From a virus: a DNA stretch of 64,000 nt. The notes beneath the pieces are model-generated. The model was given only the letters and a program-made list of their open reading frames with translations, was not told the origin of the DNA and searched no databases. Numbering within the stretch: the stretch's first letter is position 1; every line of letters begins with the position of its first letter. Position numbers and translations under genes: made by a program. The stretch covers positions 6,165 to 70,164 of IMG/VR virus record IMGVR_UViG_3300049027_000085; one strand, 5' to 3'. Shown here in pieces: positions 13,101 through 37,253 of this stretch.

Positions 13101-15494
13101 AAGGACGAACGCGTCAAGAAGCTGAAGCTCCACCGCGACGCGGAGAAGGCGGTCCGCCCTGAGAGAGACAAGCGGACCGCACTTCAGGTCGCGATCGACA
13201 ACCACATCGAGGCGGGCGGCACCAAGCTGACCCGCGACGACGTGCTTGGGGTCAAGGACAGGAACCGGTTCTTCAGCCAGCGTGCCGGGAAGATGAAGCC
13301 GTCGGAGATCAACGACCTCTACCTCGAGGCGGTGAACCTCTACATCGACGCGACATCCGACATCCGCGAGGCGCAACAGCAGCGCCGCGCCGAGGCGACC
13401 CTCAAGGCGCCGGGCTACCAGCCCGCCCTTGACAAGGAAGAGGTCAAGCAGATCAACAAGGAGCTCGACGAGGCGCGGCGGCTGAAGACCAAGGAGAGCC
13501 ACAACCTCAGGAAGCTGATCGAGCACATCGTCGGCAGGCCGTTGACCAAGCGGGAACGGCTGGGCGACTGGTACATGCGGCTCAACCGGAATGGCGAGGC
13601 GCTGCTCACCGCGACCGTCAAGACCGCGGCCCACAACGTGATCGCCCAGCGCGGCACGAAGGTGATCAACGCCCTCGAGACCGCGGTCGAACTGGCGTTC
13701 GCCAAGGCCGAGCAGACGCTGGGCGTGAGCATATTCAGTGAGACCGGACTCGACATACCCGCGTCGACGCGGCTCCGCGACGTGCTCAAAGAAGAGGTCA
13801 AGAGCAGCACCTTCCCGTCGGTCCGCAAGGCGCTCCAAGAGTACCGTGACGGCGAGGCCGACCTCATCTCCGCGCTGCAGACGGTTGCTGCCTACAAACA
13901 GCGCGTGGTCGAAGGGGTCCTGGGCCACAACCCGGACCTCTACGACCAGATGATAGGGGCCTTCTCTTACGGCCAGGAACAGGCCGAGGCGCGTCCGATC
14001 GACGAAAGTTATGGCATGGGTGCCAAGACGGTCGAGCGGTTCGTGCGGGGCGTCGAGCGGTACACCCATTACGGGACGGTCCTCAATCGGATCCAGGAGA
14101 AGCACTACCGGTTCGCCACCTTCCTGGCGACCTTGACCGCCGACCTGAAGGGCATGGGCGTCGACCTCGACGCGGTGGTCGAGGAAGGGCAGACGGCGAA
14201 CATACCACGCAACCTGTTGGAGCGTGCGACGAAACGCGCCCTCGAGGACACGTTCGGCGAGGACCTGCCCAGCGACTCGAGCCTGGCGCAGTTCATCAAG
14301 GCCGGCCACAACAGCGCCGCGTGGATACCGTTCATGCTGAACCCGATGCTGTTCCGCAGGTTCTTCTACAACAGCGGCAAGTTCATGGTCGAACACACGC
14401 CCCTCGTGTTGGCGAAAACGGTCACCGCCAAGGGGTTCAGCCGGCGCGACGCTGCCAAGTTCGTGATGGGGACCAGCATGTTCCTGTTCGCCCTCCAGGT
14501 GCTGCGTGAGTTCGGGTCTGACGACGACGACCCGACGGTGCTCAACATCCACGGCCACAACCTGAGGATCAGCGCGTTCAACCCGATCTCGACCTTCATC
14601 GTGATGGCGAACTTCTACCGCAGGTACGAGAAGGGCAAGACGCCCATGAAGACCGGCGACGAGCTGTTCCAGCTGCTGGGGATCGACACCCGGTACCCGA
14701 ACCTCGCGCTCGACTGGTGGAAGAGCATCATCAACCTCGGCTCGGGCGACGAGGCGAAGTACGTCAAGCTCAGCGAGCAGAGCACCATCCTCGGTGCACG
14801 AGGGCTGTCCGCGTTCCTACGGCCCCTGGCGACCGTCAAGGACATCATCAGCCAGTTCGATGAAATGGAGTCGGCCGTCCGCGACCCGATGGGGCAGACG
14901 TTCCGCACCGAGCTTGGCAAGACGGTCCCGCTGGTCTCGACCCGCGAGGCGCCGCTGCTGGGCCCGCCGCCGCCTGTCCGTGAGGACGTGATGACAGGCA
15001 AGCCGATGACGAAGAAGAGCCCGCTGCTCGACCAGATGGGGTTCACGTTCATCAACGACAACCAGGTCGGGGCGAAGTTCAGCCCGGCTGAGGAGTACCT
15101 CGACCAGGCTGCAGCACAGGAGCGGTCACTGAGGCCCAAGAAGTTCAAGGACCCCGAGGAGCGCCGGAGGTCAGGGTACACAGCTCAGCTGTTCACGGCC
15201 ATAGACAAGGGCAACGACGTCAGCAAGGTCGCCGTGGACTACAAGAAGCGCGGGCTGATCACCAAGGACCAGCTGGATGACCTGCTTGACGCGAACCGGA
15301 TCAAGAGCACGGTCGAGCGCAAGGCGAAGGTCGCCAGCATCGGGAAGATCGTGGACGCCTGGTACCTGGCGAACGAGGATGAAAGGAAGATCCTGCGGAA
15401 GGTGCTGACGCAGAAGGTCGCCAACCAGAAGAAACGTGGCAGCCTGAAGCCGGAAGAAGAAAGGGTGGCGAGAGAAATCCTCACCACCCCTTGA
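1200..15494 (+). CDS. Giant (4764 aa) virion/ejection polyvalent protein with M15 peptidase, SH3-like, GGDEF, zincin, WCT and HTH modules
   Basis: Single uninterrupted ORF. Motifs: SGYRS..Q..LY..ARPGTSDH..AVD (M15), DDLTGLANR/RRGGDEF (GGDEF), HEKIH..EE (zincin), SWCTSRG, and SLRQAAKENGVSHELLRRRF (HTH). It also has Gly/Ala-rich hydrophobic segments typical of ejection proteins. Confidence 0.8.
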   Translation: MAQDQDKPFTKLLNQVAPPLTQPKKKRPRRKPVAQQPANNPDQEKYNLFVNALKKRGIPVNSGYRSRQQQANLYNRLPKGEAARPGTSDHEFWRAVDTPPDADENLIREAAKEAGIELGPHRIHQGTGRHRHQSFNKPKQQEGEFTKLLKQLPQEPQDGEFTQLLKGLGGPTDRSEVQDTGNDRPWVPKMYTIHDVPGAPQGQQTTQKQVPVGTSEPQEPAAGVAAVDPTAAQDPGSRAFSKKVTFRDKPEGVSNTEWAIQQLIPEIVNRTGHSQGDVERQLRKGIAHYEGTPLDEISPESYYEFAGSEDFVNALDQQRDAREAALEAALESPEEWSPADWDRFSKETGTDPAEIQAALSGQSERFSSFAEAGNQRRQALAAKTQELMQQGGLTQFQAGVRARVEMGILDELKAQELLQKDQKAQQEFEAYFRENFIDTRAVTAGLGQVSSMGGGMNPVQDSQTFAKLQDPVEYEKARSEYVAMQMQNMLQQYGSYDAAMQRHKNVMRDYDPNLRPLARPLEMAKSLVKALPEAVSSIFRTGAFLQDFITPGMVYRAVTDTPSTPTKDKNLVKLAEWVEKHTEENLGQNKDLQVEFMNSLALNLAFNVGPNAVGQLLTQVGAGALGGGAKLATLIGMGQGLGEQQKEAIKGGASENQIKLHSLIGAVAAVPDIIPLAKWMHEPTLLNKFFGKFFAGAVEQVGEEAALQATKGLIARTLSRAKTFAAGSAMEGLQELSEKKINDAVATMTYDPKRRVLVFTDEDLLETLGGAVGGLGGAAVEITMEGEQPTTANPTVDQVLAQYNQTAPAQTTAKTPDPMAIAPPPPPAAVEPVEQPVGVQVGSTVEAPFRGKTVTGTVTNIENGKLTVQTENNTFVVNEKRATPVTQQTAPPAAAPPVEPDAVPKSVVPVQAGIKVAPYDGPQAAPEETATPSVKSVERRGVRERVADFIYPEGKNRRETAERAAQTDDLTGLANRGALDRALPAAEKDPNTSVIAFDANNFGQINKKVSQQAGDQALKDIASAIQQAAKEEGVGERVFRRGGDEFVVLAPKAKAERVRKLAEQIYGDKDYSGVKVSISGTVGNTFNEADATLQDAKAVKKGLKSAPKGSLKRTFKGPVEQQSYYANREFLKKELDKVGLEADPAVIEATTEALFKKWPDPKTFRKAITDFIRDETNDHVTDRVELLDLQGKLKRKKLSPDDQTKVHYIKKKLQEYTSGKMLRLREEFDLDAIAEDILFRMARADFGAAKGDPNTGYVMSDWTGEEVGIGDIVKYRVDKRQGTVERIVDEYGETEAVVRLTHDSQGREILPQNQHNVSWPERDIRLVTRNPEVTGQPDLARTFDIYLNKYKGLFDKQDVKVEEFTKLFERGIIAPARQLAAPLTYRPPYTVSSLLQPQFDDFRAKNKLVSKETITSMAFKNAKPLEKEFINTVLASPIFKDRKKFPFNEFELELSRELLPLNVIYSAHHANYGVSRLGAYDSYGKEETHIYDVPAVNATLDAMDHGYTAHWTDQYDEMVDRAQYKVDQVVSPSGEPVYLVVPDIVYDIDYPSTGYALEQEYPRWVRKKGKGDKGDFKLNEESLYEVSVFNTRNREDAELVAKDLTQRVKRTKGLFGHTRVWYKDDTAYIAEIQGEGLQRFTYPYHGGTKSTWTTKKWHWGASQWDVSRSVSSAVEMVFNHFQKRHAVKGTVDEKMDEFIDFVMEGKMTMDALSDISDATTAIKKGGELMDRIANDILSEIENRVDTDPEYRDDKGNTKLTPDDRMKVMSKELAKMSDQLQIGKLRRQAIETKLEELKEYAEEVDQKEKVAYGLINSEEYTQAIDELVHHIRLAADLRRDDWKLAVDRFKQDMEDNLWEEWKTEADARTWIHDRHQTGDNQFYLIRSYKDPQTKEISYVPMSEVNYYEYSTNDLHGLWDDASSKVETLAQEIIEETFEDQVKFGSDFFYMLKNPMVAHFRGGRWVEHAMNDDWSFIDNAQIRSEIQEAARDHFSTKTNRMKSSDKLRAEYEDLKMSYSSEDFKNFEDLERDLIKKWKSFTDIVPLWAKQFIYHQKNFGPRMAREEIQRAAKRGLKTVRMAAPETGALIEGHVDTTQISDARKVVDPNLGYSVYTQYRSDRLDAGDIIYLDGSQEPYMVVEVGEGWLKAAKGTSVIMGTPDKVIMNLTAEAPDRTRDIEAQARELLEEFGYRIFPASSRSGSILAAYEGPGFDIVELKMPDTGDPKKIDLKKLRAGIRTHHQPIFDRYVEMADWTFKERPDARWVTDHNGHRWIEFDITEADVNKPIALFRADLLEDHIDQRDKWAQREEMDDEFFRAIDSQIDDSGAVRLNFAAAELIRRIETQTQIDQGDDPFVPLFAAAMGRQQDVDNWIDRLATIDSELTRLGYPDDSRKGIQELRKQLESLPNRVGVIYTRNFALPHEKIHEARYLNAAMEASVRSYYDDFEATFNAAKTDRGNMTVNEKAFRNYFSKTYYNNRKFSSLDREERGILHEEVFTAITDGDYAKLKLTDSEAARFIEADLDAYVKKNGDQILDDIEVWANEKVKKFAAVEKLLAGKQATKELKKAGISVQETESRNGERDRGGAQDAGTQEADGRGVKDRRLPKTVGRNTSLVEDDLTSVARQLEQLPRDVAAKGAEEWLESQGFESAYSQVFDLPPSGQNTAKRMAVIEHIDAQVERYTQQGDTGRAKEWYSRLVTLTNAISPDYTEYGRAIGQLARWADLDPQAVVGHTQQKMAKAGKADKLTLEQQQQLRDQAKQIAELEKKVQDLEAKKNGAGGKGKSHPLNQQKLRATAALQALKSKLGSLKRYNQSLKAAADKIRKLGAQGTAASWINRNENNVTNWQELFNDPNGLDKLREQVDHSHTIASNNAKIKELSITDMNGYLDQQVALADDGANLANPQIQRAVQLARTNRKAAVDSLVNWVMNERQQSLQEWDKYLTNDNDVYAEDPFFRDFVWQGLTESLRNDRPDIPPSLDRAVLAGVYETFSQGNNFTGFMKLYKKESSRALAEAKDMTKVTTSGGQWVKIPRTSQDSPDFEQNANRLRSLSAQSWCTSRGMERPYIQKGDFWIYQEGGVTELAIRFDGDQVVEIQGRLNNGRIPVEYIQQVTELQNSGEVQFSKGAQTQIDRAKRQVVETQKIEKWLEDENIKVGSVSTEVSNAETLEHAKMAYVGENMPRRLASIIYDRYEGIADLEWHVDRERDMYIAGGRLTEDDIENVTDKYQYVIAQLAWEEMTAHHDDEQDYDDERNPGDLVDPNWRLNNFLEDTEFKHFDDLYDTFFPGKFKAPAPKPITKEQLSEVKNAESLGQAQAIYEYHTNLNQFIADNKEYISKRQLDGVTNPSISEAYRKRNFDQLTRTVGIRKTFESAPLWQQEEMLGLRKLKNGNYVFPHRVSIGADGTIGNPYMYRPTLGLQGNIPTYGLPIGKFLDKIEVFESSVQLRKGVKVPKLRLAEKNLVIEARGVEVPKLQVVGGNLYIQRTATKDIKFPNLVAVGRSIGVLNIYNYATEGLKAPDVLKFPKLIREGSRGLNQPGMVMSWKPEKETSSSGHTFTQMVEHNHDLKGNKLDSSNTTQLGHKKFDARTFASNLRLRKGQKGYSLKSAFDDTKHGPGPRGPKRGFLVDEDQVRKVYREYLDGKSLRQAAKENGVSHELLRRRFKELGLDLKTKGEGAEDMWRDGRGKGSLKNAFGDIEGDDDFLSYEGDVESRVTEYIDRFEPKNSLEREIFRRYIKDVVNPDEEILEILNPPDRIMLAEFLGERYATEWAEEWQDVYEKSPTEEQVKDVEDRMFKLAKEAAERYDAEDPLPAAANQEIDNDPARPLEDRLNDMAMNAYWDNITKSDPMAEQEDDDNDSWPDLLMRVDEDRPISDFPKDTRDALVDVAKYKYLEGRMADGLSFDDWRSAVMNELVAAKVDPAQLEGYYKSLYREVVSQVKQERFRAELDRMKEKYNLQDDTAARLALIEEKDERVKKLKLHRDAEKAVRPERDKRTALQVAIDNHIEAGGTKLTRDDVLGVKDRNRFFSQRAGKMKPSEINDLYLEAVNLYIDATSDIREAQQQRRAEATLKAPGYQPALDKEEVKQINKELDEARRLKTKESHNLRKLIEHIVGRPLTKRERLGDWYMRLNRNGEALLTATVKTAAHNVIAQRGTKVINALETAVELAFAKAEQTLGVSIFSETGLDIPASTRLRDVLKEEVKSSTFPSVRKALQEYRDGEADLISALQTVAAYKQRVVEGVLGHNPDLYDQMIGAFSYGQEQAEARPIDESYGMGAKTVERFVRGVERYTHYGTVLNRIQEKHYRFATFLATLTADLKGMGVDLDAVVEEGQTANIPRNLLERATKRALEDTFGEDLPSDSSLAQFIKAGHNSAAWIPFMLNPMLFRRFFYNSGKFMVEHTPLVLAKTVTAKGFSRRDAAKFVMGTSMFLFALQVLREFGSDDDDPTVLNIHGHNLRISAFNPISTFIVMANFYRRYEKGKTPMKTGDELFQLLGIDTRYPNLALDWWKSIINLGSGDEAKYVKLSEQSTILGARGLSAFLRPLATVKDIISQFDEMESAVRDPMGQTFRTELGKTVPLVSTREAPLLGPPPPVREDVMTGKPMTKKSPLLDQMGFTFINDNQVGAKFSPAEEYLDQAAAQERSLRPKKFKDPEERRRSGYTAQLFTAIDKGNDVSKVAVDYKKRGLITKDQLDDLLDANRIKSTVERKAKVASIGKIVDAWYLANEDERKILRKVLTQKVANQKKRGSLKPEEERVAREILTTP
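1335..1610 (+). other. Peptidase M15-like (peptidoglycan hydrolase) domain of the giant protein
   Basis: NSGYRSRQQQANLY...AARPGTSDHEFWRAVD...HRH matches the SxH-x6-D...HxH zinc-ligand pattern. Confidence 0.75.
4080..4505 (+). other. GGDEF (diguanylate cyclase) domain of the giant protein
   Basis: TDDLTGLANR, FDANNFGQIN..AGDQAL, RRGGDEFVVL (about 4317-4346), SISG, ADATLQDAK. Confidence 0.9.
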
Positions 15495-15523
15495 CGCGCC
15501 CTGGAGCCTATGCCCTGCCCGGC

Positions 15524-16075
15524 TTAGTCATCCCGAGACGCGTTTTCTGTCCCGGCCTGATCGCTATCAGGGGGCTCCGGTAATTCCTCTGTCTCGGATC
15601 CACCCTGGTACTCAGCCACGTCCTTCTGCTCGGCGGCCGGGCGGTTCTCGGTCTGCGGTTCTGCTGCTTCAGTTTCTTGTTCTGCCATGTTAACTGTCTC
15701 CTGTTGAGTTGAATTACCTTCCCCTTGATCGACGAACTTTCTGAGCGACTCGATGGTCGCCTTGAACAGGTGGTCCTTCACCTGCTGCTCCTTCGGGAGC
15801 TTCTCATAAGGCACGATGCACGGGTGCTCCTTCTTGTCGGCGTCCTTGTTCAGGCCCCACACCCAGCCATGCGAGATCTTCAACCTCAGCCAGCTCTTGT
15901 GGCTCTCCTCAGCGGTGGTGCTCGGGTCCGAGAGGTGAAGGTTGACGCCGGCGATCGCCGACTCACGCTGCCAGCTGGGAGCCTTGTCCCACTCGACTTG
16001 CGACGTGTCGCCGATCGCCTCACAGTACGCCTTGTTTATGTTGTGGCAGATCTCTGCCAGGTCTCTTGCGTTCAT
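15524..16075 (-). CDS. RyR-domain protein with acidic C-terminal tail
   Basis: HKSWLRLKISHGWVWG..KDADKKEHPCIVPYEKLPKEQQVKD is the RyR-domain signature. Confidence 0.8.
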   Translation of the reverse strand: MNARDLAEICHNINKAYCEAIGDTSQVEWDKAPSWQRESAIAGVNLHLSDPSTTAEESHKSWLRLKISHGWVWGLNKDADKKEHPCIVPYEKLPKEQQVKDHLFKATIESLRKFVDQGEGNSTQQETVNMAEQETEAAEPQTENRPAAEQKDVAEYQGGSETEELPEPPDSDQAGTENASRDD

Positions 16076-16079
16076 AACT

Positions 16080-16334
16080 CTACTCGTTACACGCGATCGT
16101 CAGGTTGATCGCCATGTTCAGCTCACGCAGCTTCCTTAGGGCTGCGGTCTGATCAGCGCATTCAGGTGTATACTCAAGGATCATCTCAGCGACCTCTTTA
16201 CACTTGTCACGGATGATCTCATACCGGTCCACTTGATTCGGAGTCGGCGGGTGGTGGACGAACCAGTTATCCGCCACCTCTTCCGCATTGCTGCGACGGG
16301 GTCGCGGCTTTTTCACTTCAGCTTCATTTTCCAT
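16080..16334 (-). CDS. Acb2/Tad1-like helical-hairpin protein (candidate cyclic-nucleotide sponge)
   Basis: NWFVHHPP..QVDRYEIIRDK..EVAEMI..TP..DQTAALRKLRELNMAINLTIA resembles the FxYHxP..Y..IR..LA..P.SRE..A..KLEE..MWANA.IA hairpin family. Confidence 0.6.
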   Translation of the reverse strand: MENEAEVKKPRPRRSNAEEVADNWFVHHPPTPNQVDRYEIIRDKCKEVAEMILEYTPECADQTAALRKLRELNMAINLTIACNE

Positions 16335-17077
16335 AACGTGTTCCTCGCCTGCTCCGGAAACATCGGAGCCATCATGACACTTATTAAGTTAGAACAATAG
16401 TACTTGTTCAACTCGGTGAACATCTTCAGGTGCCACGCCTCGAACTTCCCCTTGTAGTCCTTCTGGCTGGCGAACGTGCCGAACTTCTCGGTCACGGTGA
16501 AGTGCCTGTCGACCAGCTCCTGCACCTCCTGGTGGGTGAACTCCTGCGGCTGGACGCCGTTGCCGTCGCCGGAGTCGTACGTGTGGTTGCCGGCAGCCCC
16601 CACAGCGGGGTCGTAGTTCGGCGTCGAGAGGTAAAAGACGGAGTCCGCATCACCGCAGGCCGCGAACCGGTCCATGAACTCAGGGCCGTTCTGCTTGCCG
16701 ACGTGCTCGAGCACCTCGAAGCTGACCACGTGCTTGGCACGCGGCAACTCCTGAAAGAACCCGATCGGCGCCTTCACGATGTCTAGCTCATAGAACCCGA
16801 CCCACGGCACTTCCTTGAACGCCTCGCGCGCCTTCTCGACCGTCTTCTTACGGATCTCGAGGCCGGTGTACGGGTCGGCTTTGAAGCGGTTGCGGTACAG
16901 CACCTCAGCGAGGTTACCTTGACCGCAGCCGAAGTCGGTCACACTGTCCCCGACCTTCATGCACTTCAGCACGTGCGTCCACCTGAGGTAGTGCGCGAAC
17001 TGGTCGCGATGGTAGATGTGGCGCTCAAACGCCGTCTTCGGATCTAAATCGGTCGTGTTGTAGTTCTTCTTGCTCAT
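16313..17077 (-). CDS. Class I SAM-dependent methyltransferase
   Basis: VTDFGCGQG (motif I), GLEIR (motif II), SFEVLEHV, LSTPN. RBS TTGAAAGGAGG lies upstream. Confidence 0.85.
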   Translation of the reverse strand: MSKKNYNTTDLDPKTAFERHIYHRDQFAHYLRWTHVLKCMKVGDSVTDFGCGQGNLAEVLYRNRFKADPYTGLEIRKKTVEKAREAFKEVPWVGFYELDIVKAPIGFFQELPRAKHVVSFEVLEHVGKQNGPEFMDRFAACGDADSVFYLSTPNYDPAVGAAGNHTYDSGDGNGVQPQEFTHQEVQELVDRHFTVTEKFGTFASQKDYKGKFEAWHLKMFTELNKYYCSNLISVMMAPMFPEQARNTLWKMKLK

Positions 17078-17258
17078 TGCTCTTTGCTCCTCCTTTCAAA
17101 CGGTTATCCTTTACGTACAAGTAGATCTTGCTGCCTACTTTCTTTTGCATCGTGTCGAACCCTCTTGCGGCGAAATCTTCTCTGAATTGTTTTGCGCGCA
17201 CGGGATCCGATGTGGCTTTGCTCGTTCTCCTGTAGCCGTCTATCACCTCTGGTAGCAT
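17025..17258 (-). CDS. Hypothetical protein
   Basis: AGGAGG RBS before the ATG. Fills the gap in the operon. Confidence 0.5.
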   Translation of the reverse strand: MLPEVIDGYRRTSKATSDPVRAKQFREDFAARGFDTMQKKVGSKIYLYVKDNRLKGGAKSNEQEELQHDRFRSEDGV

Positions 17259-17505
17259 GTAACCTCCTGAGCCTCAGCTCGATCCTCGCGTCCTGGACCA
17301 GGTTGTTCACCTGCACGTCCCGCCAGTTGGTCTTGAACGAGAGCATCCCGAGACGCTGCATCGCCATCACTATTTGTCGGTCTTTGAGTCCGCGTCTTGG
17401 GCCACAGGGAGGCTCCCCGTAGGGATAACCGTCGAGCTGTAGCTCGGCCCAGTTGTCTGCGACCCACTCGATCCTCTTGAGTTTGTCCTCTGCTGTGTTT
17501 CCCAT
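17104..17505 (-). CDS. Hypothetical protein (MGNTAEDK...)
   Basis: ATG at 17505 begins where the deaminase homology ends. It is the 3' part of the 300-aa ORF-track call. Confidence 0.5.
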   Translation of the reverse strand: MGNTAEDKLKRIEWVADNWAELQLDGYPYGEPPCGPRRGLKDRQIVMAMQRLGMLSFKTNWRDVQVNNLVQDARIELRLRRLHATRGDRRLQENEQSHIGSRARKTIQRRFRRKRVRHDAKESRQQDLLVRKG

Positions 17506-17930
17506 GCTTCGACTTGAACACCGGCGGACATCAGCAGGGCGATGCCCATCGGGTCCTTGTACCCCTCCAAGTAAACTACCCTCTTGATCGGCGTTTGCAA
17601 AATCCGCAGAGCGCACTTCGTACAGGGGGCAGTCGTGCAGTAGAGCGTGTCCGCCCGGTCGATCCTGTCCCCTGCGAAGTGGATCGCGTTGTCCTCGGCG
17701 TGGAGCGCCAGGCAGAGGTTCGTCGTCCCTGACGGCTCGTTCACCCCGGGACAAGGCGTCTCCGTGCAGTTGGGGAGCTTCGACGGCGGCCCGTTGTACG
17801 CCGTGCTCAGGATCCGCTGCCGGTCGTCGATGATCACCGCGCCGCCCTGACGCCTCGGGCAGCTCGCCCTCAGCTTCACGCCGAGGACAATGTCGAGGTA
17901 GTACTCGTCCCAACTCGGGCGTCCACCCAC
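17370..17930 (-). CDS. dCMP deaminase
   Basis: RPSWDEYY, ASC.RRQ.GAVI, YNG, HAEDNA, PCTKC. Probable GTG start at 17930. Confidence 0.9.
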   Translation of the reverse strand: MGGRPSWDEYYLDIVLGVKLRASCPRRQGGAVIIDDRQRILSTAYNGPPSKLPNCTETPCPGVNEPSGTTNLCLALHAEDNAIHFAGDRIDRADTLYCTTAPCTKCALRILQTPIKRVVYLEGYKDPMGIALLMSAGVQVEAWETQQRTNSRGSSGSQTTGPSYSSTVIPTGSLPVAQDADSKTDK

Positions 17931-18658
17931 TCTTTCGCCAGTTTCTTGTCCACGTTCCATTGTCCGTTCTCCTTGAAGTAGTCCAGCAGGTAGAAGTGCC
18001 GGTCATAAATGTGCCCTGAACCGCAGTGCCAGATGATCAACCCACGGTGAAAACGAACGGCCGGGGAGTTTAATTTCTCCAGCATCCTGTCGCGCACGTA
18101 GGTGGCCCACGCGAGGTCATTCGGATACCCGTAGATCATGTCGCATGACCGCATGTAAACCATCATATTCAACGCACCGGCTTGATCAATATTGAACTGG
18201 TACGAGTACGTGCACATGTAGTCGTTGCGACCGTTGTGGTTGAAGTCACGCGTCATCGAGGGGCGGTTGAACTGTATCACCGCCCTCCTGGTGTGCGTGT
18301 CCTTCTTCAACTGGTTGACCGCGAACATGAACTGGTGGTGGTTGTCCTTGCTGAACACGACCCAGCCGTAGTTCGAGTTGATCACCCCGTCGTCGTCGGC
18401 GACCTCCTTCCAGATCTTCGGCACATCACCCGGGATGTCCTTCACCTTCAGGCTCTGGCTGAGGTACCACTGCTTCTCGCGCTCGATGTAGCCGAGGTCC
18501 GGCGCCCCGAAGAGCGCCGGGTCAGAGGCGTTGAACTGCAACGCCGTGATGTCGACGGTCCGCTGCCGGCCCTCGGTGAACTGTTTCGCCCCGTACAGGT
18601 AGAGAAACTGCTCGCGTATGTAACTGATCGGCGGGATGTTTCTCAGGATGAGACTCAC
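17876..18658 (-). CDS. dCMP hydroxymethylase (T4 gp42-like, thymidylate synthase fold)
   Basis: REKQWYLSQSL.VKDIPG..PKIW, INSNYGW, DYMCT, MRSCD..YGYPNDLAW and GSGHIYDRHFYL align with T4 gp42 as recalled. Asp occupies the position of ThyA Asn177, indicating dCMP specificity. Confidence 0.85.
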   Translation of the reverse strand: MSLILRNIPPISYIREQFLYLYGAKQFTEGRQRTVDITALQFNASDPALFGAPDLGYIEREKQWYLSQSLKVKDIPGDVPKIWKEVADDDGVINSNYGWVVFSKDNHHQFMFAVNQLKKDTHTRRAVIQFNRPSMTRDFNHNGRNDYMCTYSYQFNIDQAGALNMMVYMRSCDMIYGYPNDLAWATYVRDRMLEKLNSPAVRFHRGLIIWHCGSGHIYDRHFYLLDYFKENGQWNVDKKLAKEWVDARVGTSTTSTLSSA

Positions 18659-19581
18659 AGTGTCACCTCCTTGGGTCGGTTGAACATGTCACGGTTCGAC
18701 TTCTGCCCGTCTATCTTGCCGCGGAGCAGCTCGACCCCGATCGCTAAGAAGCACATCCGGTCCTTGAACGTGTCTTCCAATACCTCGTTGTTCGGCTCGT
18801 ACCCCTCACCGTATGCCGCCTCGACAAGTGATGTCTGCCGGTTGCGCTTCTCGACGTCGACCTTGTAGATCACGTCGAGGATGCCGTTCGGGTAGTAGTC
18901 TGCGGCCTTGACCGAGGAGTTCGGGTTCTGGTAGTCTTGGCCCTTACGCCGTAAAAGATCTATGCACTCCTGCAGCACCAAGATCGCCTCGCGGTCGTTG
19001 TCCGCCGGGTCGACTTTTCCTAAATGCTCTAACCCCTTGGAGGTCAGAAACACTTCAGGGTCAGCATACGCGCGTACTCGGTTGATCGCTTCGGTGATCT
19101 TGCTGTCGTCGATTAACATGCGTTTGTACTCAGCCTTATCTTCCGGGTCGAGCATGTTGAAGAACAGCTCGACGTCGACCGACTCCGGCCCGAGGTCAGG
19201 CTTCACCCACCCGTCAGGCTTGACGAGGTCCATACCCTCGCTGTTGGGGCGTTTGTCGTTGGACCCAACGACCTTCGTGTGGTTGGCTTTCATCACCTTG
19301 ACCCATGCGTCGTTCGCGCAGTCCGGGCCGACCAGGAGGTCAAGGGTGCCGGCGGCCACGACGATCAGGTCTATGAGGCCGTCGACGAGCTCCTCGGAGT
19401 TCATCTCGTAGGCGGCTTTTTCGGTCTCTAACAGCTCCTCCTCGAGGAACTGGAGCCTGTTGACCAAGCCCTTTGTGGTGAGCCGGTCGGGCGTGAAGCC
19501 GTACTTCTCGTGGAAGTTCTTGAGGTCGTCGAACACATTTCCGGTTATCTGCGGCGTTGGGGCCGCTGCTGTGTCGTTCAT
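18655..19581 (-). CDS. MazG-like NTP pyrophosphohydrolase fused to a nucleotide-modification-associated helical domain
   Basis: N-half: FLEEELLE..ELVDGLIDL..VMKAN..K..DLVKPDGW. C-half: ECIDLLRRKGQDYQNPNS...LEDTFKD, a domain seen next to base-modification genes in T4-like phages. Confidence 0.75.
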   Translation of the reverse strand: MNDTAAAPTPQITGNVFDDLKNFHEKYGFTPDRLTTKGLVNRLQFLEEELLETEKAAYEMNSEELVDGLIDLIVVAAGTLDLLVGPDCANDAWVKVMKANHTKVVGSNDKRPNSEGMDLVKPDGWVKPDLGPESVDVELFFNMLDPEDKAEYKRMLIDDSKITEAINRVRAYADPEVFLTSKGLEHLGKVDPADNDREAILVLQECIDLLRRKGQDYQNPNSSVKAADYYPNGILDVIYKVDVEKRNRQTSLVEAAYGEGYEPNNEVLEDTFKDRMCFLAIGVELLRGKIDGQKSNRDMFNRPKEVTL

Positions 19582-19594
19582 GATTTGTCTCCTT

Positions 19595-19717
19595 TCAAAC
19601 TAGATTTAATTTTCCCAAGATCGTTCTGACCACACGGTAAAGCAGTGTCGACACGTGCAGTCGAGGTGGCGGAACGTAGCGTATCGACTTCGACACGTTG
19701 TAAAGGTGTTTACTCAC
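19595..19717 (-). CDS. Small hypothetical protein
   Basis: GTG overlaps the upstream TGA, with an AAGGAGG RBS. Confidence 0.4.
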   Translation of the reverse strand: MSKHLYNVSKSIRYVPPPRLHVSTLLYRVVRTILGKLNLV

Positions 19718-20199
19718 AACGTCACCTCCTTGATGAATTGCTGTCTGAAGAGCGGCCAGTCCGCCTTCCACGCGTCGAGCATCCCGTACTGACCGCTCTT
19801 CTCCATCACTTTCCAACACTGTCTGAGGCTGAACATCACGCCGTAGTAGCCGATCGGGTAGTACTTCTTCTCTCGAGTGTTGAGCCGCCAGGTCGGGTCG
19901 TACACATTTCCGTTCTTGTCGACCACCCACGCGTGCATCGTCGGTATGACCGTGCAGGCGAAACCCTCGACGTAGATCAGGTCGTCTTGAAACAGGGTGA
20001 GCTCGAACGCGTTCTTGTAGCACTGCTTCTCTTCCCCCATCGGGTACTTGTTCAAGATCTCATAGTCGACGTCGAACTGCGCGCCGTTCTGGATCACGAA
20101 GTCTTCTGCCCCGCTGTAGTACCACCCCTTGGGAAGTGGCACTGACCAAGTTTTTTTCATCTCCACCATTTGGTGGAGGTACTGTTCTGTTGGTGTCAT
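19714..20199 (-). CDS. Hypothetical phage protein (possible Cys-His-Asp transglutaminase/papain-like fold)
   Basis: QCYKNA...YVEGFA...HAWVV....YDPTW. Strong RBS. Confidence 0.6.
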   Translation of the reverse strand: MTPTEQYLHQMVEMKKTWSVPLPKGWYYSGAEDFVIQNGAQFDVDYEILNKYPMGEEKQCYKNAFELTLFQDDLIYVEGFACTVIPTMHAWVVDKNGNVYDPTWRLNTREKKYYPIGYYGVMFSLRQCWKVMEKSGQYGMLDAWKADWPLFRQQFIKEVTL

Positions 20200-20316
20200 T
20201 GCTCAATCTCCTTTCAAAAGATGTCATAGGTGGGGGCCTAACAGCCCACAGTCGGGCCCCCACCGATCAGGCGATACGGCCAAACCTGATCATTGTTCAC
20301 GGGCCGTCTTTTTCAT

Positions 20317-20434
20317 TGGCAGGGACGTCAGGACTCGAACCTGAAGATCTCCGTTTTGTACACGGTGTCGGTACTCCTATAACGCTATGACGAAGCATTA
20401 CGCCGCTATAAACGGCTTTACGACCCACGTCCCT
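20317..20434 (-). tRNA. Atypical tRNA-like RNA: tRNA-Trp-like acceptor, ACA anticodon, expanded D-arm
   Basis: Acceptor AGGGACG/CGTCCCT followed by G-CCA. T-arm TCAGG-TTCGAGT-CCTGA. Anticodon arm CCGT-GTACAAA-ACGG. D-stem GTCG/CGAC encloses about 50 nt with two hairpins. Has its own promoter upstream. Confidence 0.7.
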
Positions 20435-20474
20435 AAAATTGTCAAAATGGTGTCTTCTCAAATGCGACTTAAAG

Positions 20475-20506
20475 ATCGTAGCACGCGATCATTTGGAAGT
20501 AAATAC
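20475..20506 (-). promoter_or_regulatory. Phage sigma70-type promoter (copy 1) driving the tRNA-like gene and modification operon
   Basis: GTATTTACT-17 bp-TACGAT with TG extension and an upstream A/T tract. Confidence 0.7.
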
Positions 20507-20516
20507 TAGAAATGAC

Positions 20517-20560
20517 TTTTTTAAAAACGATTCAGGGTGACCGTTGCGGGTCACCCTGAA
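20517..20560 (-). terminator. Intrinsic terminator after the replication operon
   Basis: 12-bp perfect stem TTCAGGGTGACC/GGTCACCCTGAA followed by TCGTTTTT. Confidence 0.65.
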
Positions 20561-20635
20561 CTGTTTGAAAGGAGGTCCCAGGCGGGACCGTGTTGAGCAA
20601 GATAACAGTACCACGTTTGACACGAATATGTACAC

Positions 20636-21067
20636 CTAAAATTCTCTCTTCTCCCACTGTTTCTTCTTGTAGCTCACAGCTATGAATTTGAAGATCGGGA
20701 ACTGCTCGGCGGCGACCTTGATCTTCACCAGCGCGTCGTCCGTCCACCAGCCCTTGACCTCGTGAATCTCCAACGTCAAGTCGTCCCGCATCACGAGGAA
20801 GTCTGGGCGGTAGTATGTGTTGTCGGCCAGTCGGAGATTGAACGGCTTGGGTGTGTACCACGGCACGTCATCGGCCAGGTCGAGCATCGTGGCCCACGCC
20901 CTCTCGGTTTTGTTGAGTGGGTCATCCTTTACGCGGCCTATGGCCTGCATACGTTGCAACGACGTGGGCTCCTGGGCGTCCCGTGGCGCCTTTTTCTTGT
21001 CAGGCCTTATTCTGCCTTCACGTTCCAGCCGTTCGAGGTCCTCGTCGTCAAGCCGCAATCCCTTCAT
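20636..21067 (-). CDS. PD-(D/E)xK endonuclease (DUF1064-like)
   Basis: NKTE..W...YYRPDFLV....EIHEVKG...DALVKIK. Confidence 0.75.
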   Translation of the reverse strand: MKGLRLDDEDLERLEREGRIRPDKKKAPRDAQEPTSLQRMQAIGRVKDDPLNKTERAWATMLDLADDVPWYTPKPFNLRLADNTYYRPDFLVMRDDLTLEIHEVKGWWTDDALVKIKVAAEQFPIFKFIAVSYKKKQWEKREF

Positions 21068-21446
21068 CTTTCCTCCGATTCAGCCAGGTTCCGCTCCCGC
21101 GGCCCTTGCGGCCCTTGAGGAACTTGATCACAGGGGTGAGGTTGTACACGATACGTCCGTCGTCGTTGCTGAACCACATGCCCTTGAGGTTGCCAGCCGT
21201 GCGGTGCTTGATCAGTAACGCCTTGTTGGTCTTGAGCCCCTGTCGCTTGGCTTCCTCCAAAACCTCGCTTTCCGTCGCCAGCTTGATGCCCGGCGTTGAC
21301 TCCCTGAGGTAGTCGTCGACCAGGCTCAGCAACACGTCACGGGGCGTGAAGCCGTTGTAGGTCGCGACCTTCTGGAACTTCGTGAAGCGCTCCTCCTCTT
21401 TCGAGTTGAACATCTTCAGGTTGAATGTACGTACTGCCTGTTTCAT
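21048..21446 (-). CDS. Hypothetical, probable DNA-binding regulator
   Basis: Basic protein with an RHH-like N-terminus (TFNLKM...VLLSLVDDYLR). Confidence 0.5.
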   Translation of the reverse strand: MKQAVRTFNLKMFNSKEEERFTKFQKVATYNGFTPRDVLLSLVDDYLRESTPGIKLATESEVLEEAKRQGLKTNKALLIKHRTAGNLKGMWFSNDDGRIVYNLTPVIKFLKGRKGRGSGTWLNRRKDEGIAA

Positions 21447-21485
21447 CTTGAGCCCATCCTATCATGTAAAATACCGAAATTGACA

Positions 21486-23372
21486 CTAAAATTGCGGGTC
21501 CTCTTCGTTCACCACGCCCGGCTGACGCTCGACCGGCCCCAGCACCAACCCGTGCTCGACGATCCTCAGCGTCACGGGGTCGAGGTCGATCGCCACCGTC
21601 CTGCAGGTGCCTGCACCGTTGCGCGCTTTCGTAATCGCTATGCTTCGTCTGTGCTGCACCACGTCTTGGCTGTCGTCAGCCTTGAGGACACGTGTGAACC
21701 CTGGATTCAACTCTTCCGAGTGCTGCAGCCAGATATTCGTGTGCGTGAAGCGGTGCCACGCCTGACCCCCCGCTGCCCCCTCAGTCCCCGGCTTCTTGAC
21801 GCCGGGCTTTTGGTGGGTGGTGGCGATCAGGCTCATTCCGGCGTCGTTGATGATGCTCTGCGCGGTGAGAACGAACTTTTGGTCACTCTCCCACTGCTTG
21901 TTGGCCATCTCCATGGCGGTCACCGGGTCGATAATGGCCACGCTGTAACCGGATGCCGCGATCTTCTCGAGCCACTGCAGCACCGCCTTGGGCGTCATCA
22001 TCTTCGCCTCCAACGTGGTGACGTGCTCGAAGTACGCGTCCAACCTGTCACGTACCGACATGAAGATCTCCTGGGCCTCGTCACAGTGCTCACGCTGCCA
22101 GATGGCGTCGGTGTACTCGGAACGCCCCGCCATCTGGGCGACGCACCGTTTCTGGTAGTCGATCTTGCCGTCCTCGAGGAACAGGGTGGCGCACCGGTCA
22201 CCTGCCTCGTTGAGACACCACCCAGCATACATCGCGATGAAGCTCTTCGCGGAGCCTGGGTTGCCGATCAGCAAGGTCGACTTGCCTGGCAGCGTCATCT
22301 GCGTCAGCTTGGTGAGGACCGGCATCCCCGGCAGCTCCACCAAACGGTAGTTCCCGTCGTGTATGTCGTAGAGGTGCTCCTGAAACTCGAGGCTGGGCGT
22401 CCACGGTATAGCCTGACGGAAGATCGACTCGAGCCGCGGCATCGGGTCGCCGTTGACCTTGGCGAGGAAGTCCGCGATGTCATCCTTCTCCTCAGGCTCC
22501 CAGCCGCCGATCCTCGTCACGTCGACGACCTTGATGGAACGCGCGAACTTCCTGATCAGCTCGATCACCTCGGTCTGGTACCGCTTGCCCGGCCGGTCGT
22601 AGTCACGCCAGATGGTGACGTCCTTATCCGTGAGTGGCGTCCAGTCGGTCAGGTCGGGAGCCTTACCGCCGCCCGGTGAGGTGGTCGCCGCCCAGTCAGG
22701 CATGTTCACCCTGGTGAAGTGCTCGACGCACTTCTCCCCCTCGACCACCAAGACATTTTGTGCAGTGGTGACCCGGCCGAGGTTGTAAAGCGGCCGGTTG
22801 TTCGGTAAGCTCTCGAAGTCCCACCCCTTCGCGGAGGTGAAGGTCGCCTGCAGGACGCGCTTGCCCTCGCCGGGGACGTCGAACCGGACGGTCGCGAAGC
22901 TGCACCCACCGGTCGACGGGTCGTCGTACTTGTGGATCGAACCGAGCGCGAAGTTGGGGTGCCGTGACAGATACTGCTGCACCAGCCCCTCGATCGTCGA
23001 CGGTCCGACGGGTACCTGACTCGGCGCGGCAGCTGACAGGTAAGTCATCGTCTGTTCGATCGACGACACTTCCTGCTTGAAGGCAGCCCGCAATGAGGTG
23101 TTGTTACGGAAAGCCTGCAAAGCGAAGTAGTCGAGGTGCAGGTCGCAGGCGTAACAGATGAAGTAGTAACCGCTGGGCAGCTCCTTCACCTCGGCGGACG
23201 GGTTCTTGTCGTTGTGGTAGGGGCAGAGGAACTTTCCGGATCCTGGCGGGACGCGTTTAACGCCGTCCTCCATCAGGATCTTCTCCATTCTGTACCGGTC
23301 CTTCTTGATCTCTGACTTCTGTTGTTCGCTCAACTCTGTGAAGTCTTCAGGGTCCTCTTGTTCTCTCAACAT
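21486..23372 (-). CDS. DNA primase-helicase (CHC2 zinc finger, TOPRIM, RecA/DnaB-like helicase)
   Basis: CPYH.DKNPS..CYAC, VVEGEK, DYD, DDIAD, GNPGSAKS, IIDP, ITKARNG. Confidence 0.85.
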   Translation of the reverse strand: MLREQEDPEDFTELSEQQKSEIKKDRYRMEKILMEDGVKRVPPGSGKFLCPYHNDKNPSAEVKELPSGYYFICYACDLHLDYFALQAFRNNTSLRAAFKQEVSSIEQTMTYLSAAAPSQVPVGPSTIEGLVQQYLSRHPNFALGSIHKYDDPSTGGCSFATVRFDVPGEGKRVLQATFTSAKGWDFESLPNNRPLYNLGRVTTAQNVLVVEGEKCVEHFTRVNMPDWAATTSPGGGKAPDLTDWTPLTDKDVTIWRDYDRPGKRYQTEVIELIRKFARSIKVVDVTRIGGWEPEEKDDIADFLAKVNGDPMPRLESIFRQAIPWTPSLEFQEHLYDIHDGNYRLVELPGMPVLTKLTQMTLPGKSTLLIGNPGSAKSFIAMYAGWCLNEAGDRCATLFLEDGKIDYQKRCVAQMAGRSEYTDAIWQREHCDEAQEIFMSVRDRLDAYFEHVTTLEAKMMTPKAVLQWLEKIAASGYSVAIIDPVTAMEMANKQWESDQKFVLTAQSIINDAGMSLIATTHQKPGVKKPGTEGAAGGQAWHRFTHTNIWLQHSEELNPGFTRVLKADDSQDVVQHRRSIAITKARNGAGTCRTVAIDLDPVTLRIVEHGLVLGPVERQPGVVNEEDPQF

Positions 23373-23386
23373 AGGTTGCTCTCCTT

Positions 23387-24250
23387 TCAGTTGTAAATTT
23401 CTTCCATACGCGCCTTCACCTCAGCCGGCCAGGTGTCCGGGTTGTAGCCGTAGAACTTCTGTGCGTCTTCAATGCCGTTGATCTTCCACGCCGGCGGGAT
23501 GTTCTTCTTCTCGCGCTCGGCGACACGACGCATCCACTTCTTCCACGCCGCGATCCAGCCTCCACCTTCAACGCATTTGTCTCCAGTCGCCGTGTAGTGA
23601 TCTATGAAATTCGCGTGTTCAACGGTCAGAATGTCACGCGTCAGCTGTTGGGGATACATTCGCTTCATCTCGTCGATCGTCTCTTGAGGCGGCTTGAACT
23701 TCGGATCGACCGTTGTTTTAACTGTTTTAACCTTCACCTCCTTGGTCGGAGTGGGTTCAGGATTCGGTGGGTCTGGGATCAGCGCGGGCTGTGTTTTTTC
23801 TATTTCGGAAGAGGTGTTAACCTCTTCCTTTTTATATTTACCTTTATACCAGACATTTTCGTCTGGGGCTGCAGACATTTTCGTCTGTAGGGCTACAGAC
23901 GATTTCGTCTGCAGGGGTACAGACGATTTCGTCTGTAGGGCCCTCACCGGATTACCAGGGAGGTAAAGGTGGCGGGCCTTAACTTCTTTGGTCTCAGGGT
24001 CTACGATCACCTCACGTTCTAGGTAACCGTATTCGACCAGTTTAGAGACGGATCTTCTGATCGATGTTTCTGTGGTTTTGGTCAATTCAGCTAGATAGGA
24101 GTTACGTGCGTAGCAGTAACCTTGCTGTGTGGTCAAGGCTGTAATTCGCCCATATAACAATTTTTCGGTCGATGTGAGCCGGTCGTCGTCGAGAACAATC
24201 GCAGGTATTACGGCGTAATACCCGTGATGAGGTTGATCTGGGTTTTCCAT
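23387..24250 (-). CDS. Replication initiator (lambda O/HTH_36-like)
   Basis: YYAVIPA.V..D.RL...KLLYG.I..L....GYC.A.NSYLA..LVEYGYL. Contains internal iterons. Start taken as ATG at 24250. Confidence 0.8.
   Translation of the reverse strand: MENPDQPHHGYYAVIPAIVLDDDRLTSTEKLLYGRITALTTQQGYCYARNSYLAELTKTTETSIRRSVSKLVEYGYLEREVIVDPETKEVKARHLYLPGNPVRALQTKSSVPLQTKSSVALQTKMSAAPDENVWYKGKYKKEEVNTSSEIEKTQPALIPDPPNPEPTPTKEVKVKTVKTTVDPKFKPPQETIDEMKRMYPQQLTRDILTVEHANFIDHYTATGDKCVEGGGWIAAWKKWMRRVAEREKKNIPPAWKINGIEDAQKFYGYNPDTWPAEVKARMEEIYN
23850..23935. repeat. Four palindromic 16-bp iterons (probable origin) next to an AT-rich tract
   Basis: CAGACATTTTCGTCTG at 23850 and 23872, CAGACGATTTCGTCTG at 23896 and 23920. 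AT-rich stretch at about 23826-23849. Confidence 0.8.
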
Positions 24251-28870: not shown

Positions 28871-28901
28871 TTCGCCGATTCTTTTGAAAGGAGAGCACAC
28901 C

Positions 28902-36780: not shown

Positions 36781-37253
36781 ACAGACCGATAGTGTTCCTA
36801 CAGAACTCGTACAGCCCGGTGTACGCCGGGAGGGAGTGGCCGAGGGAGAGCTGGCTGAGGGCGCTGGCGGCCTGCCGATCGGGGAAGATGCTGACCCACC
36901 TGGGCCAGCCGTGGGGCGTGATGCACAACACGACCCCTCAGGTCGGCAGGACGGCGAGCAGCAAACTGCCGCCGGACTACGATCACATGTTGAGGGTTAT
37001 CCAGGAATGTTCTCCGGCTTCTATCGTGGCCTGCGGCCAACAGGCGATCGACGCCGTGAGGCTGATCTGGGACGGGCCGAGGGTCGAGCTGCCGCACCCA
37101 GCATGTCGCTGGGTAAAGTCCACCTTGTATCAGGAGGGGAAACGTCTCCTGGACCTGCAGGTGAGGGGAGGGATGAACTTCCGCGCGAGGGTGTGGGAGA
37201 AGAAGGGTGAGCCGTTCAAGGTGGAGATCCTGCGGCAGGAGGTAAAGGTATGA
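36777..37253 (+). CDS. Uracil-DNA glycosylase superfamily-like protein
   Basis: VFLQN, SGKML, NTTP, IVACGQQA, LPHPA follow the UDG-fold motif order. Confidence 0.5.
   Translation: MNRPIVFLQNSYSPVYAGREWPRESWLRALAACRSGKMLTHLGQPWGVMHNTTPQVGRTASSKLPPDYDHMLRVIQECSPASIVACGQQAIDAVRLIWDGPRVELPHPACRWVKSTLYQEGKRLLDLQVRGGMNFRARVWEKKGEPFKVEILRQEVKV

Follow-up and report, generated by a model that had tools for sequence, protein, structure and literature searches.

This analysis concerns a gene module on the minus strand of a 64,000-nucleotide stretch of viral DNA (hereafter the window), which corresponds to bases 6165-70164 of IMGVR_UViG_3300049027_000085, a 70,164-bp IMG/VR virus record from an uncultured soil phage. 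Between positions 16313 and 19581, the module comprises a MazG-type pyrophosphatase, a T4 gp42-type deoxycytidylate (dCMP) 5-hydroxymethyltransferase, a dCMP deaminase, two small open reading frames (ORFs) and a class I S-adenosylmethionine (SAM) methyltransferase. It is likely that the methyltransferase belongs to the pathway of 5-hydroxymethylcytosine (hmC) at all, and we see about an even chance that the module carries out a pre-replicative replacement of cytosine of the T4 kind, in which hmC is then methylated on its hydroxyl group, probably on DNA, to give 5-methoxymethylcytosine. A first-pass annotation, made from the sequence alone, had named these genes, all of which are confirmed by the ORF list at 16313-19581 on the minus strand, and had proposed a T4-type hmC pathway paired with a SAM methyltransferase. 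The pairing stands, given a homologue of thymidylate synthase (TS) beside the methyltransferase in 100 of 107 loci and three natural fusions of the methyltransferase to C5-cytosine methylases, whereas the chemical outcome goes beyond what the analysis shows.

The enzyme that defines the pathway is a TS-fold protein of 260 aa (17876-18658, minus strand) that matches PF00303 with E 1.8e-17. Against solved structures, T4 deoxycytidylate hydroxymethylase (PDB 1B49, 1B5D, 1B5E and 6A9B) is matched over residues 32-239 with E 1.2e-58, whereas the best match to a true thymidylate synthase reaches only E 3.8e-8. In tblastn searches, genes of T4-like Klebsiella, Aeromonas and Acinetobacter phages that are annotated as dCMP hydroxymethylase or thymidylate synthase match 82-89% of the query at 41.5-45% identity. 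The signature D143-C146-D169-D177 (E. coli ThyA numbering; hereafter D-C-D-D) is present, the residues in the protein's own numbering being D146 (within NDYMC), C149 and D181, the last residue of the GYPND segment at 177-181 in which the first-pass annotation had correctly recognised the dCMP-specifying Asp of a gp42-like enzyme, and an RSCD segment keeps Asp at the position of residue 169. E61 aligns with E58 of the E. coli enzyme and C149 with its catalytic C146, and both are invariant in 15 aligned homologues. As described in PMC13326640 (2026), N177D corresponds to the use of dCMP rather than dUMP, an acidic residue at L143 accompanies hydroxymethyl products by admitting water, a hydrophobic residue at 143 is said to exclude water in methyl-forming enzymes, and D169N marks 5-hydroxy-dCMP synthases. 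Because of the match to 1B49, the D-C-D-D signature and the Glu aligned with E58, the TS-fold enzyme is, by every sequence criterion available, a dCMP hydroxymethylase. A 5-hydroxy-dCMP synthase of the RB69 gp48 type was considered and rejected, since Asn is not present at 169 and Asp is kept; as Asp is likewise kept there in all 99 linked TS homologues described below, 5-methoxycytosine is not an expected product.

Upstream of the hydroxymethylase gene lies that of a MazG/PRA-PH two-domain protein of 308 aa (18655-19581, minus strand). Its N-terminal part matches PF01503 (residues 32-81, E 1.8e-5, 25.5 bits against a cut-off of 21.3) and phrog_671, annotated as nucleotide pyrophosphohydrolase (residues 12-131, E 9e-21), and the acidic residues E48, E49, E52, D67 and D71 are invariant across 26 homologues. 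Pfam gives no match to the C-terminal ~170 residues, even with the threshold relaxed to E<=1; phrog_18404 matches both halves of the protein, and 26 of the 30 homologues found span at least 92% of it. On this conservation the C-terminal part is a conserved extra domain, and the earlier description of the protein as a MazG-like pyrophosphatase fusion is upheld. An assignment of the extra domain to DUF6378 was not established (BLASTP E 0.34; hhalign E 0.68, and E 0.013 over 25 columns). From its place in the pathway, the MazG-type enzyme is a putative dCTPase that would supply dCMP and keep dCTP out of DNA. The dCMP deaminase, 196 aa as listed (17370-17960, minus strand), was likewise correctly recognised: it matches PF00383 (E 5.9e-18, 65.1 bits against a cut-off of 25) and phrog_174 (E 1.4e-43), and the HAE and PCxxC zinc motifs are seen in its translation. 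Its coding signal, measured as third-position GC by frame, drops near 17500, over the last ~45 codons, where a second frame takes over, and its true start is probably later than listed.

The record is filed as linear and has a CheckV completeness estimate of 55%, and absences therefore hold for these 70 kb only. The Pfam scan covered every kept ORF of the window of at least 77 aa (five ORFs of 46-72 aa were left out), and the PHROGs scan covered nearly all window ORFs of at least 77 aa together with nine ORFs in the 6 kb upstream. Within this scope no glycosyltransferase, dNMP kinase, ThyA or ThyX was found in the 70-kb record, and no second thymidylate synthase turned up there. A P-loop pattern was restricted to the giant ORF described below, one AAA protein and the terminase. 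The scans with Pfam, PHROGs and the P-loop pattern thus bear out the earlier remark that neither a glycosyltransferase nor a dNMP kinase is recognisable.

The methyltransferase (254 aa, 16313-17077, minus strand) matches PF13489 with E 7e-11, as well as seven related Pfam models. Its 254 residues contain no [DNS]PP[YFW] motif and no PC dipeptide, and the protein has no match to PF00145, PF01555 or PF02384. An AlphaFold (AF2) model built from 33 homologues, with a mean predicted local distance difference test score of 85.5 and a predicted template modelling score of 0.84, has a seven-stranded class I fold with an N-terminal helical lid and C-terminal helices, and its loop 152-181 is poorly ordered yet invariant in sequence. 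Fold searches return a flat list of small-molecule methyltransferases (VIA Z 16.3-18.3; Foldseek against the PDB, TM by query 0.44-0.58), among them cyclopropane synthases, TleD, TehB-like proteins, CmoM, MccD, UbiG and cap guanine-N7 methyltransferases, of which none stands out. The negative motif search and the fold neighbours agree with the first-pass view that the enzyme lacks DNA-methyltransferase motifs and is of the small-molecule type.

By sequence profile, the best match among PDB entries is the methyltransferase domain of bacterial Hen1 (3JWJ and 3JWG, E 2e-7 over 116-119 positions, a weak match), followed by plant HEN1; Hen1 is missing from the 50 best structural neighbours listed by Foldseek and VIA. 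The match covers the GCG SAM loop and an EVxEH segment after strand 4. In an alignment of nine family members down to 26% identity, including gp31 of phage AXL3 and two fusion proteins, the residues invariant beyond the SAM loop are H23, R24, D25, H29, R32, W33, E121, V122, E124, H125, S151, T152, P153, A162, N164, H165, E179, R245, N246 and W249, and the window protein carries the whole resulting family signature (HRD..H..RW, GCG, EVxEH, STP, A.NH, E179 and RNxW). E-x-x-E-H together with a later His is what we take to be the metal-binding set of Hen1, and EVLEH-like segments occur in other class I methyltransferases too; a metal-dependent O-methyltransferase is accordingly a lead only. About one third of the aligned homologues (alignment A1; for example P0023, P0031, P0045 and P0097) end in an acidic tail of the form D-D-(D/E)-L-F/M/L/Y, which the window protein does not have. 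Single-strand-binding proteins carry similar C-terminal tails, which dock on replisome partners.

Relatives of the methyltransferase form a large family, with 1149 protein clusters at E<=1e-3 among 1519 candidates as a lower bound, of which the best 120 are 56-83% identical to it along almost the entire length. The nearest clusters in Atlas come from viruses, and in IMG/VR an alignment-based scan identified 217 of 272 pattern matches as relatives, a scan of the same resource with the single sequence having returned none. Among 185,579 species, represented by one genome each, only six loci were found, all on contigs of metagenome-assembled genomes (MAGs), and among 50,697 deposited phage records five hold a relative, at 24.5-29% identity (AXL3, with two records, PW916 and two Manatee Spring phages). 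The methyltransferase family is nearly virus-only.

The main evidence comes from what lies beside these genes. A set of 89 loci was tallied, consisting of the best 80 of the 217 IMG/VR relatives, three phage records and the six MAG contigs, and was extended to 107 by 17 loci of a second lineage, reached via a fusion protein, and by the fusion locus L116. A TS homologue lies within the fetched flanks in 82 of the 89 loci and directly after the methyltransferase in 17 of 17 loci of the second lineage, which contributes to the total of 100 of 107; in the window the distance is 0.8 kb. All 99 linked TS homologues that were read (76 excluding the window's own, 5, 17 and 1) carry the D-C-D-D signature, and no Asn-177 thymidylate synthase lies beside the methyltransferase among these 99; in the hundredth, a piece of 56 residues truncated by the end of its contig, the signature is unreadable. 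The linkage spans methyltransferases 24-61% identical and TS homologues 20-33% identical to those of the window, and it spans differing phages, including the siphovirus AXL3, two records filed as Podoviridae and Siphoviridae, and uncultured phages of ~50 kb.

Other neighbours, counted within the fetched flanks of the 89 loci with Pfam run on examples, are a DUF6378 protein (78 loci), a dUTPase-fold (68) or MazG-fold (17) protein, PolA (59), a 5-hydroxymethyldeoxyuridine (5hmdU)-DNA-kinase-like protein (19), a dCMP deaminase (14) and a SAM-synthetase-like protein (9). The SAM-synthetase-like gene fits the SAM demand of the proposed pathway and is counted as support for it. The kinase-like gene (PF18723, E down to 9e-52) adjoins the methyltransferase in its 19 loci, where the TS homologue is still of the dCMP type, and its product may be a kinase for hmC in DNA. 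Examples of kinase-like and SAM-synthetase-like genes lie in L007 (6749-7990), L019 (8846-10096 and 10560-11378) and L005 (8822-10054 and 10517-11413).

Three natural proteins carry a C5-cytosine DNA methylase domain ahead of a full methyltransferase domain of the family. In P0155 (570 aa) and P0156 (820 aa) the first domain matches PF00145 with E 4.6e-24 and 3.1e-22, respectively, and in P0154 (495 aa) FxGxG-, PNC- and ENP-like motifs are seen by eye in an N-terminal half that has no Pfam match. Because 17 IMG/VR relatives of P0154 have the methyltransferase alone, with the N-terminal domain not found within flanks of up to 10 kb, the P0154-type fusion is a rare variant. The phage that encodes P0156 (L116, GC content 64%) also encodes a DUF6378 protein, an Acb2/Tad1-hairpin protein, a PRA-PH protein, a D-C-D-D TS homologue, a dCMP deaminase and PolA. 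Of the hints that the substrates of the family are cytosines in DNA, the best is its fusion to a DNA-binding enzyme that acts on C5 of cytosine. A TET/JBP route to the hydroxymethyl group was also considered; the single fusion-protein contig examined, L116, has the TS route and no dioxygenase. Between the methyltransferase fusion and the PRA-PH gene of L116, positions 15095-15679 give a match to the uracil-DNA glycosylase superfamily of 20.2 bits, below the cut-off.

Cultured phages carry the same row of genes. The three phage records that were opened share a methyltransferase, an NTP pyrophosphatase, a TS homologue and a dCMP deaminase, to which a thymidylate-kinase-like gene is added in two of the three, and the published gene table of PW916 lists the same genes. 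AXL3 virion DNA is reported to be cut by two of 37 restriction enzymes, TasI and Tru1I, which recognise A/T-only sites, and its authors concluded that G/C is modified in a manner unknown and read genes 27-31 as a thymidylate pathway (PMC7504290). The TS homologue of AXL3, gp28, has the D-C-D-D signature and the phage has a separate ThyX, gp50; for these reasons gp28 is better read as a dCMP hydroxymethylase. The adjacent gp29 (L003, 7226-8320) is a P-loop protein that resembles thymidylate kinase and has a long C-terminal extension; its match to phrog_761 (E 2e-12) covers residues 47-159 only.

Taken together, the module would work as follows. The MazG-type enzyme would convert dCTP to dCMP, and the gp42-type enzyme, whose role is well supported by sequence, would combine dCMP with methylene-tetrahydrofolate to form 5-hydroxymethyl-dCMP (hm-dCMP). 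Host or unrecognised kinases would raise this to the triphosphate, from which the phage family A polymerase would build hmC-DNA, and the dCMP deaminase, like Cd of T4, would provide dUMP towards dTTP. The class I methyltransferase would then use SAM to methylate hmC, most likely on the hydroxyl oxygen and probably on DNA after replication, filling the slot taken by glucosyl-, arabinosyl- or carbamoyl-transferases in known systems, and the expected benefit would be protection from nucleases that read C, restriction enzymes among them. That the methyltransferase modifies hmC is suggested by gene linkage and gene fusions; the choice of the hydroxyl as acceptor and of DNA as substrate is suggested by chemistry and by analogy, namely the slot of the carbamoyltransferase, the relationship to Hen1 and the lack of amino-methylase motifs. 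In its most specific form, the proposal is that 5-methoxymethylcytosine replaces C in this phage, in AXL3, in PW916 and in the phages of the family of >1100 clusters, and is made on hmC-DNA by a metal-dependent, Hen1-like O-methyltransferase; this is offered tentatively, at somewhat less than even chances.

Several observations weigh against methylation of hmC in DNA. A dNMP kinase for hm-dCMP was not found in the record by Pfam, PHROGs or the P-loop pattern. Among the 80 IMG/VR loci, many share a single sample of origin and are closely related, so that the linkage amounts to about six independent lineages and not ~100, namely the GC-rich window phage, the ~50-kb phages in several gene orders, the P0154 lineage, the group of AXL3, PW916 and ctUtU524, the Manatee Spring record filed as Podoviridae, and L087, L091 and L116. 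The 19 of 89 loci with a kinase-like gene may mean that part of the family takes part in more complex chemistry. With regard to the enzyme itself, the Foldseek and VIA searches name no substrate. The isoelectric point (pI) of the family is near neutral (median 6.0, range 5.4-8.95), and no extra DNA-binding domain is present in the methyltransferase; these two features suit a nucleotide substrate and DNA equally well.

A TS homologue is missing from seven of the 89 loci, which also counts against the proposal; six of the seven end at a contig end 0.2-3.8 kb downstream. The contigs of L027, L028 and L030 end 0.2-1.8 kb after the methyltransferase, those of L089 and L090 end 0.8 and 0.3 kb downstream, and that of L005, where the genes are arranged as in L019, breaks off 3.8 kb beyond the methyltransferase, between the dUTPase gene and the site at which the TS gene would follow. 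The seventh, L088, is a genuine exception, an integrative element of ~13 kb within a MAG contig of 203 kb (G001:C61, ~95-112 kb), with the order integrase, DUF3127, methyltransferase, unknown, DUF3127, unknown and PolA. Its methyltransferase is 52% identical in alignment A6, it has no TS homologue, and the entire MAG has only an ordinary Asn-177 ThyA. Two of its neighbour genes gave nothing in PDB sequence searches. L088 and L095 are inserted beside FolB and adjoin a type I restriction system and SMODS genes, a defence island. At a guess, L088 is a satellite that relies on the hmC pool of a helper phage.

Of the other explanations, the one that survives best, which is possible and appreciably less probable than hydroxyl methylation, keeps the hmC module and assigns the methyltransferase another chemistry, either on another atom (for example, N4 of hmC) or before replication on hm-dCMP or hm-dCTP. 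Gene linkage is silent on the atom and on the form of the substrate; a family pI of ~6, a small single domain with a small-molecule-type lid and a position among genes for nucleotide-pool enzymes would all suit such an activity, and the C5-methylase partners in the fusions point to a shared cytosine substrate rather than to the hydroxyl as such. The same fusions to a DNA methylase nevertheless favour DNA as the substrate, no amino-methylase motif is present, and the nearest PDB sequence relative, Hen1, is an O-methyltransferase. T4 glucosyltransferases act on DNA, and so, as reported, do the known carbamoyl- and arabinosyl-transferases that tailor such bases.

It is unlikely that the methyltransferase is unrelated to DNA modification and acts on RNA ends in the manner of Hen1, on a protein or on a small molecule, with its proximity to the TS gene reflecting the clustering of early and nucleotide genes. 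The best PDB match, to an RNA 2'-O-methyltransferase, the non-specific fold searches and the occurrence of the enzyme in L088 without any hydroxymethylase are in keeping with such a role, but clustering of this kind does not account well for the 99 linked TS homologues that were read, every one of which is of the dCMP-hydroxymethylase type and none of which has Asn-177. TS genes beside deaminases are predicted to be of a modified-dC type in 85% of cytosine-modified contigs and are mostly of the dT type in unmodified contigs, as reported in bioRxiv 2024.12.05.627091. Moreover, the link survives changes of gene order and a fall in sequence identity to ~25%, fusions to C5-cytosine DNA methylases exist, and no Pnkp-like or ligase partner of a Hen1 system was seen in the window by the Pfam and PHROGs scans.

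The first-pass annotation had also raised hydroxymethyluracil (hmU) by deamination, and this is a minor possibility with a low probability. In this case hmC would be an intermediate from which the deaminase makes an hmU nucleotide, by way of hm-dCMP or hm-dCTP, and hmU, possibly methylated, would replace some of the T. Seven of 90 phage 'dCMP deaminases' tested, encoded near Asp-177 TS genes, gave 5hmdU from a 5-hydroxymethyldeoxycytidine pool in vivo (bioRxiv 2024.12.05.627091), and the window record has no TS of its own for dTMP. Those seven deaminases, however, adjoined TS homologues that were predicted to form 5-methyl-dCMP, as was confirmed for five according to the same report; a deaminase is present in only 14 of the 89 loci and is not a core partner; and AXL3 DNA is resistant at G/C-containing sites and cut at A/T-only sites (PMC7504290). 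Plain 5-methylcytosine made by an XP12-type dCMP methylase, another of the outcomes first suggested, is the least probable of all, since the Asp at N177, reported to be common to dCMP methylases and hydroxymethylases, is here combined with Asp at the L143 position, 42-45% identity to T4-like hydroxymethylases and a match to 1B49 at E 1e-58.

The two small ORFs that had been noted between the deaminase and methyltransferase genes are present, both on the minus strand. ORF A (17104-17505) was delimited by third-position GC by frame and has a coding signal only at ~17230-17500 (~83 codons); its frame is open to 17104, yet the signal ends where ORF B starts (17258), and the rest of the frame overlaps ORF B. 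ORF B (77 aa, 17025-17258), taken from the ORF list and with a weak third-position GC signal, starts inside the frame of ORF A and overlaps the methyltransferase start by 53 nt. Neither has a family match in Pfam or PHROGs, or relatives in other methyltransferase loci by tblastn. Because the A/B junction (17160-17310) is identical, with 0 differences, in a contig from an independent run (X3 record 20), the change of frame is not an assembly error, and the pair may represent a programmed frameshift or plain overlapping genes.

The GC content of the window is 52-65% (in 2-kb windows), and the module forms part of a leftward block of minus-strand genes that runs from 25.5 kb down to 15.5 kb and includes replication initiator genes, a primase-helicase gene (21486-23372) and a DUF1064-type nuclease gene. 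Near-identical DNA to positions 14000-23999 is present in soil and rhizosphere metagenome contigs from several studies, with 17 runs holding part of the stretch; one run (X2) has 34% of the sampled words, and short contigs from X2, X3 and X4 cover the module with 0 differences. Downstream of the methyltransferase, and overlapping the end of its gene by ~20 nt, is a gene for an 84-aa Acb2/Tad1 hairpin protein (16080-16334, minus strand; PF24729, E 8e-8), a fold known from phage sponges for defence signalling nucleotides. It was considered as a regular partner of the methyltransferase and rejected, with relatives in only two other loci, L116 (9459-9683, two genes upstream of the methyltransferase fusion) and L054. 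The final gene of the block encodes a 183-aa RyR-domain protein with an acidic tail (15524-16075, minus strand; PF02026, E 1.2e-11), and the PHROGs that it matches have no assigned function.

On the plus strand, a family A DNA polymerase with a 3'-5' exonuclease (26763-28805; PF00476, E 4.6e-72) is followed directly by the genes of two adjacent AAA+ ATPases of 525 and 583 aa (28884-30461 and 30511-32262), the second of which matches a PHROG annotated as ATP-dependent protease (E 8e-81). A giant ORF of 4764 aa (1200-15494, plus strand) has a match to the GGDEF diguanylate-cyclase family (PF00990, 35 bits) that starts just upstream of base 4200 and reaches ~4394, and hardly any other family match; it probably encodes a giant virion or ejected protein. 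A Lar-type restriction-alleviation protein of 236 aa (37250-37960, plus strand; PF14354, E 3.8e-13) is a second anti-restriction device of the same phage. Upstream of the window, record bases 3112-3771 encode a 219-aa protein without a Pfam match whose PHROGs matches are to PAPS reductase or QueC-like proteins (best E 1.3e-8); such enzymes are found in other DNA-modification systems.

No description of natural methoxymethylcytosine, or of such an hmC-linked methyltransferase, was found in searches of full-text literature (supplements and subscription journals lay outside their scope), and a 2026 PNAS paper lists O-methyltransferases among the domains that co-occur with phage 5-methylpyrimidine dioxygenases, with no product given in the passage concerned. 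If the proposal is true, no 'cap' on hmC smaller than the methyl group would be known, hmC tailoring would include a third kind in addition to glycosylation and carbamoylation, and the base would be one so far undescribed in nature. Which restriction, CRISPR and glycosylase defences a phage evades depends on its modified bases, and modified-base systems have yielded widely used enzymes, such as T4 beta-glucosyltransferase, the 5hmC carbamoyltransferase and 5mC-selective deaminases; an enzyme that O-methylates 5hmC in DNA would likewise be a candidate for use in labelling 5hmC. The present methyltransferase family, large and virus-specific, is linked to a single type of precursor enzyme, and a cultured and published phage, AXL3, has the same module together with a matching unexplained phenotype.

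Hen1, the best sequence-profile match to the methyltransferase among solved structures (PDB 3JWG-3JWJ and 3HTX; E 2e-7, weak), is an RNA 3'-terminal ribose 2'-O-methyltransferase. An N-terminal HRD..H..RW helix and an STP...A.NH loop set the phage family apart from it, and no Pnkp partner is present. The TS-fold enzyme shares its fold, Asp 177 and an acidic residue 143 with the 5-hydroxy-dCMP synthases of RB69, DLP3 and RL38JI, which are reported to start a cytosine hypermodification (PMC13326640), and differs from them at 169, where those enzymes have Asn and the window enzyme and all 99 linked TS homologues have Asp. The closest cultured counterparts are genes 27-31 of Stenotrophomonas phage AXL3 (MT536174) and ORF58-63 of Pseudoxanthomonas phage PW916, with the same row of methyltransferase, pyrophosphohydrolase, TS homologue and deaminase, a D-C-D-D TS homologue and a methyltransferase that keeps all the family-invariant residues. 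AXL3 differs from the window phage in that its methyltransferase is only 24.5% identical (tblastn), in the extra gp29 and the ThyX gp50, and in being a siphovirus.

The MetaGPA metavirome module, whose experimental link to metavirome DNA with modified cytosine counts in favour of the proposal, is similar in composition, as a set of PF00303, PF01503, PF00383/PF14437 and PF00476 is reported to be specific to cytosine-modified contigs, and a carbamoyltransferase in the same slot to make 5-carbamoyloxymethylcytosine (PMC8670742; bioRxiv 2024.12.05.627091). The same Pfam domain set is present in the window, and a non-sugar group on the hmC hydroxyl is proposed here as well; the tailoring enzyme, however, is a class I methyltransferase and not a carbamoyltransferase, and the main text of PMC8670742 contains no instance of the word 'methyltransferase'.

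In comparison with these systems, the window module can also be set beside that of T4 itself. T4 uses the dCTPase/dUTPase gp56, the hydroxymethylase gp42, the dNMP kinase gp1, the deaminase Cd, and alpha- and beta-glucosyltransferases. The window phage differs in that its pyrophosphatase is a MazG/PRA-PH two-domain protein, its polymerase is of family A, and its record, in which no glucosyltransferase or gp1-type kinase was found, has a SAM methyltransferase in the tailoring slot. With T4 it shares a gp42-type enzyme, a dCMP deaminase and an NTP pyrophosphatase for the step from dCTP to dCMP, as well as the proposed logic of the pathway, in which C would be replaced before replication and the hydroxymethyl group then tailored.

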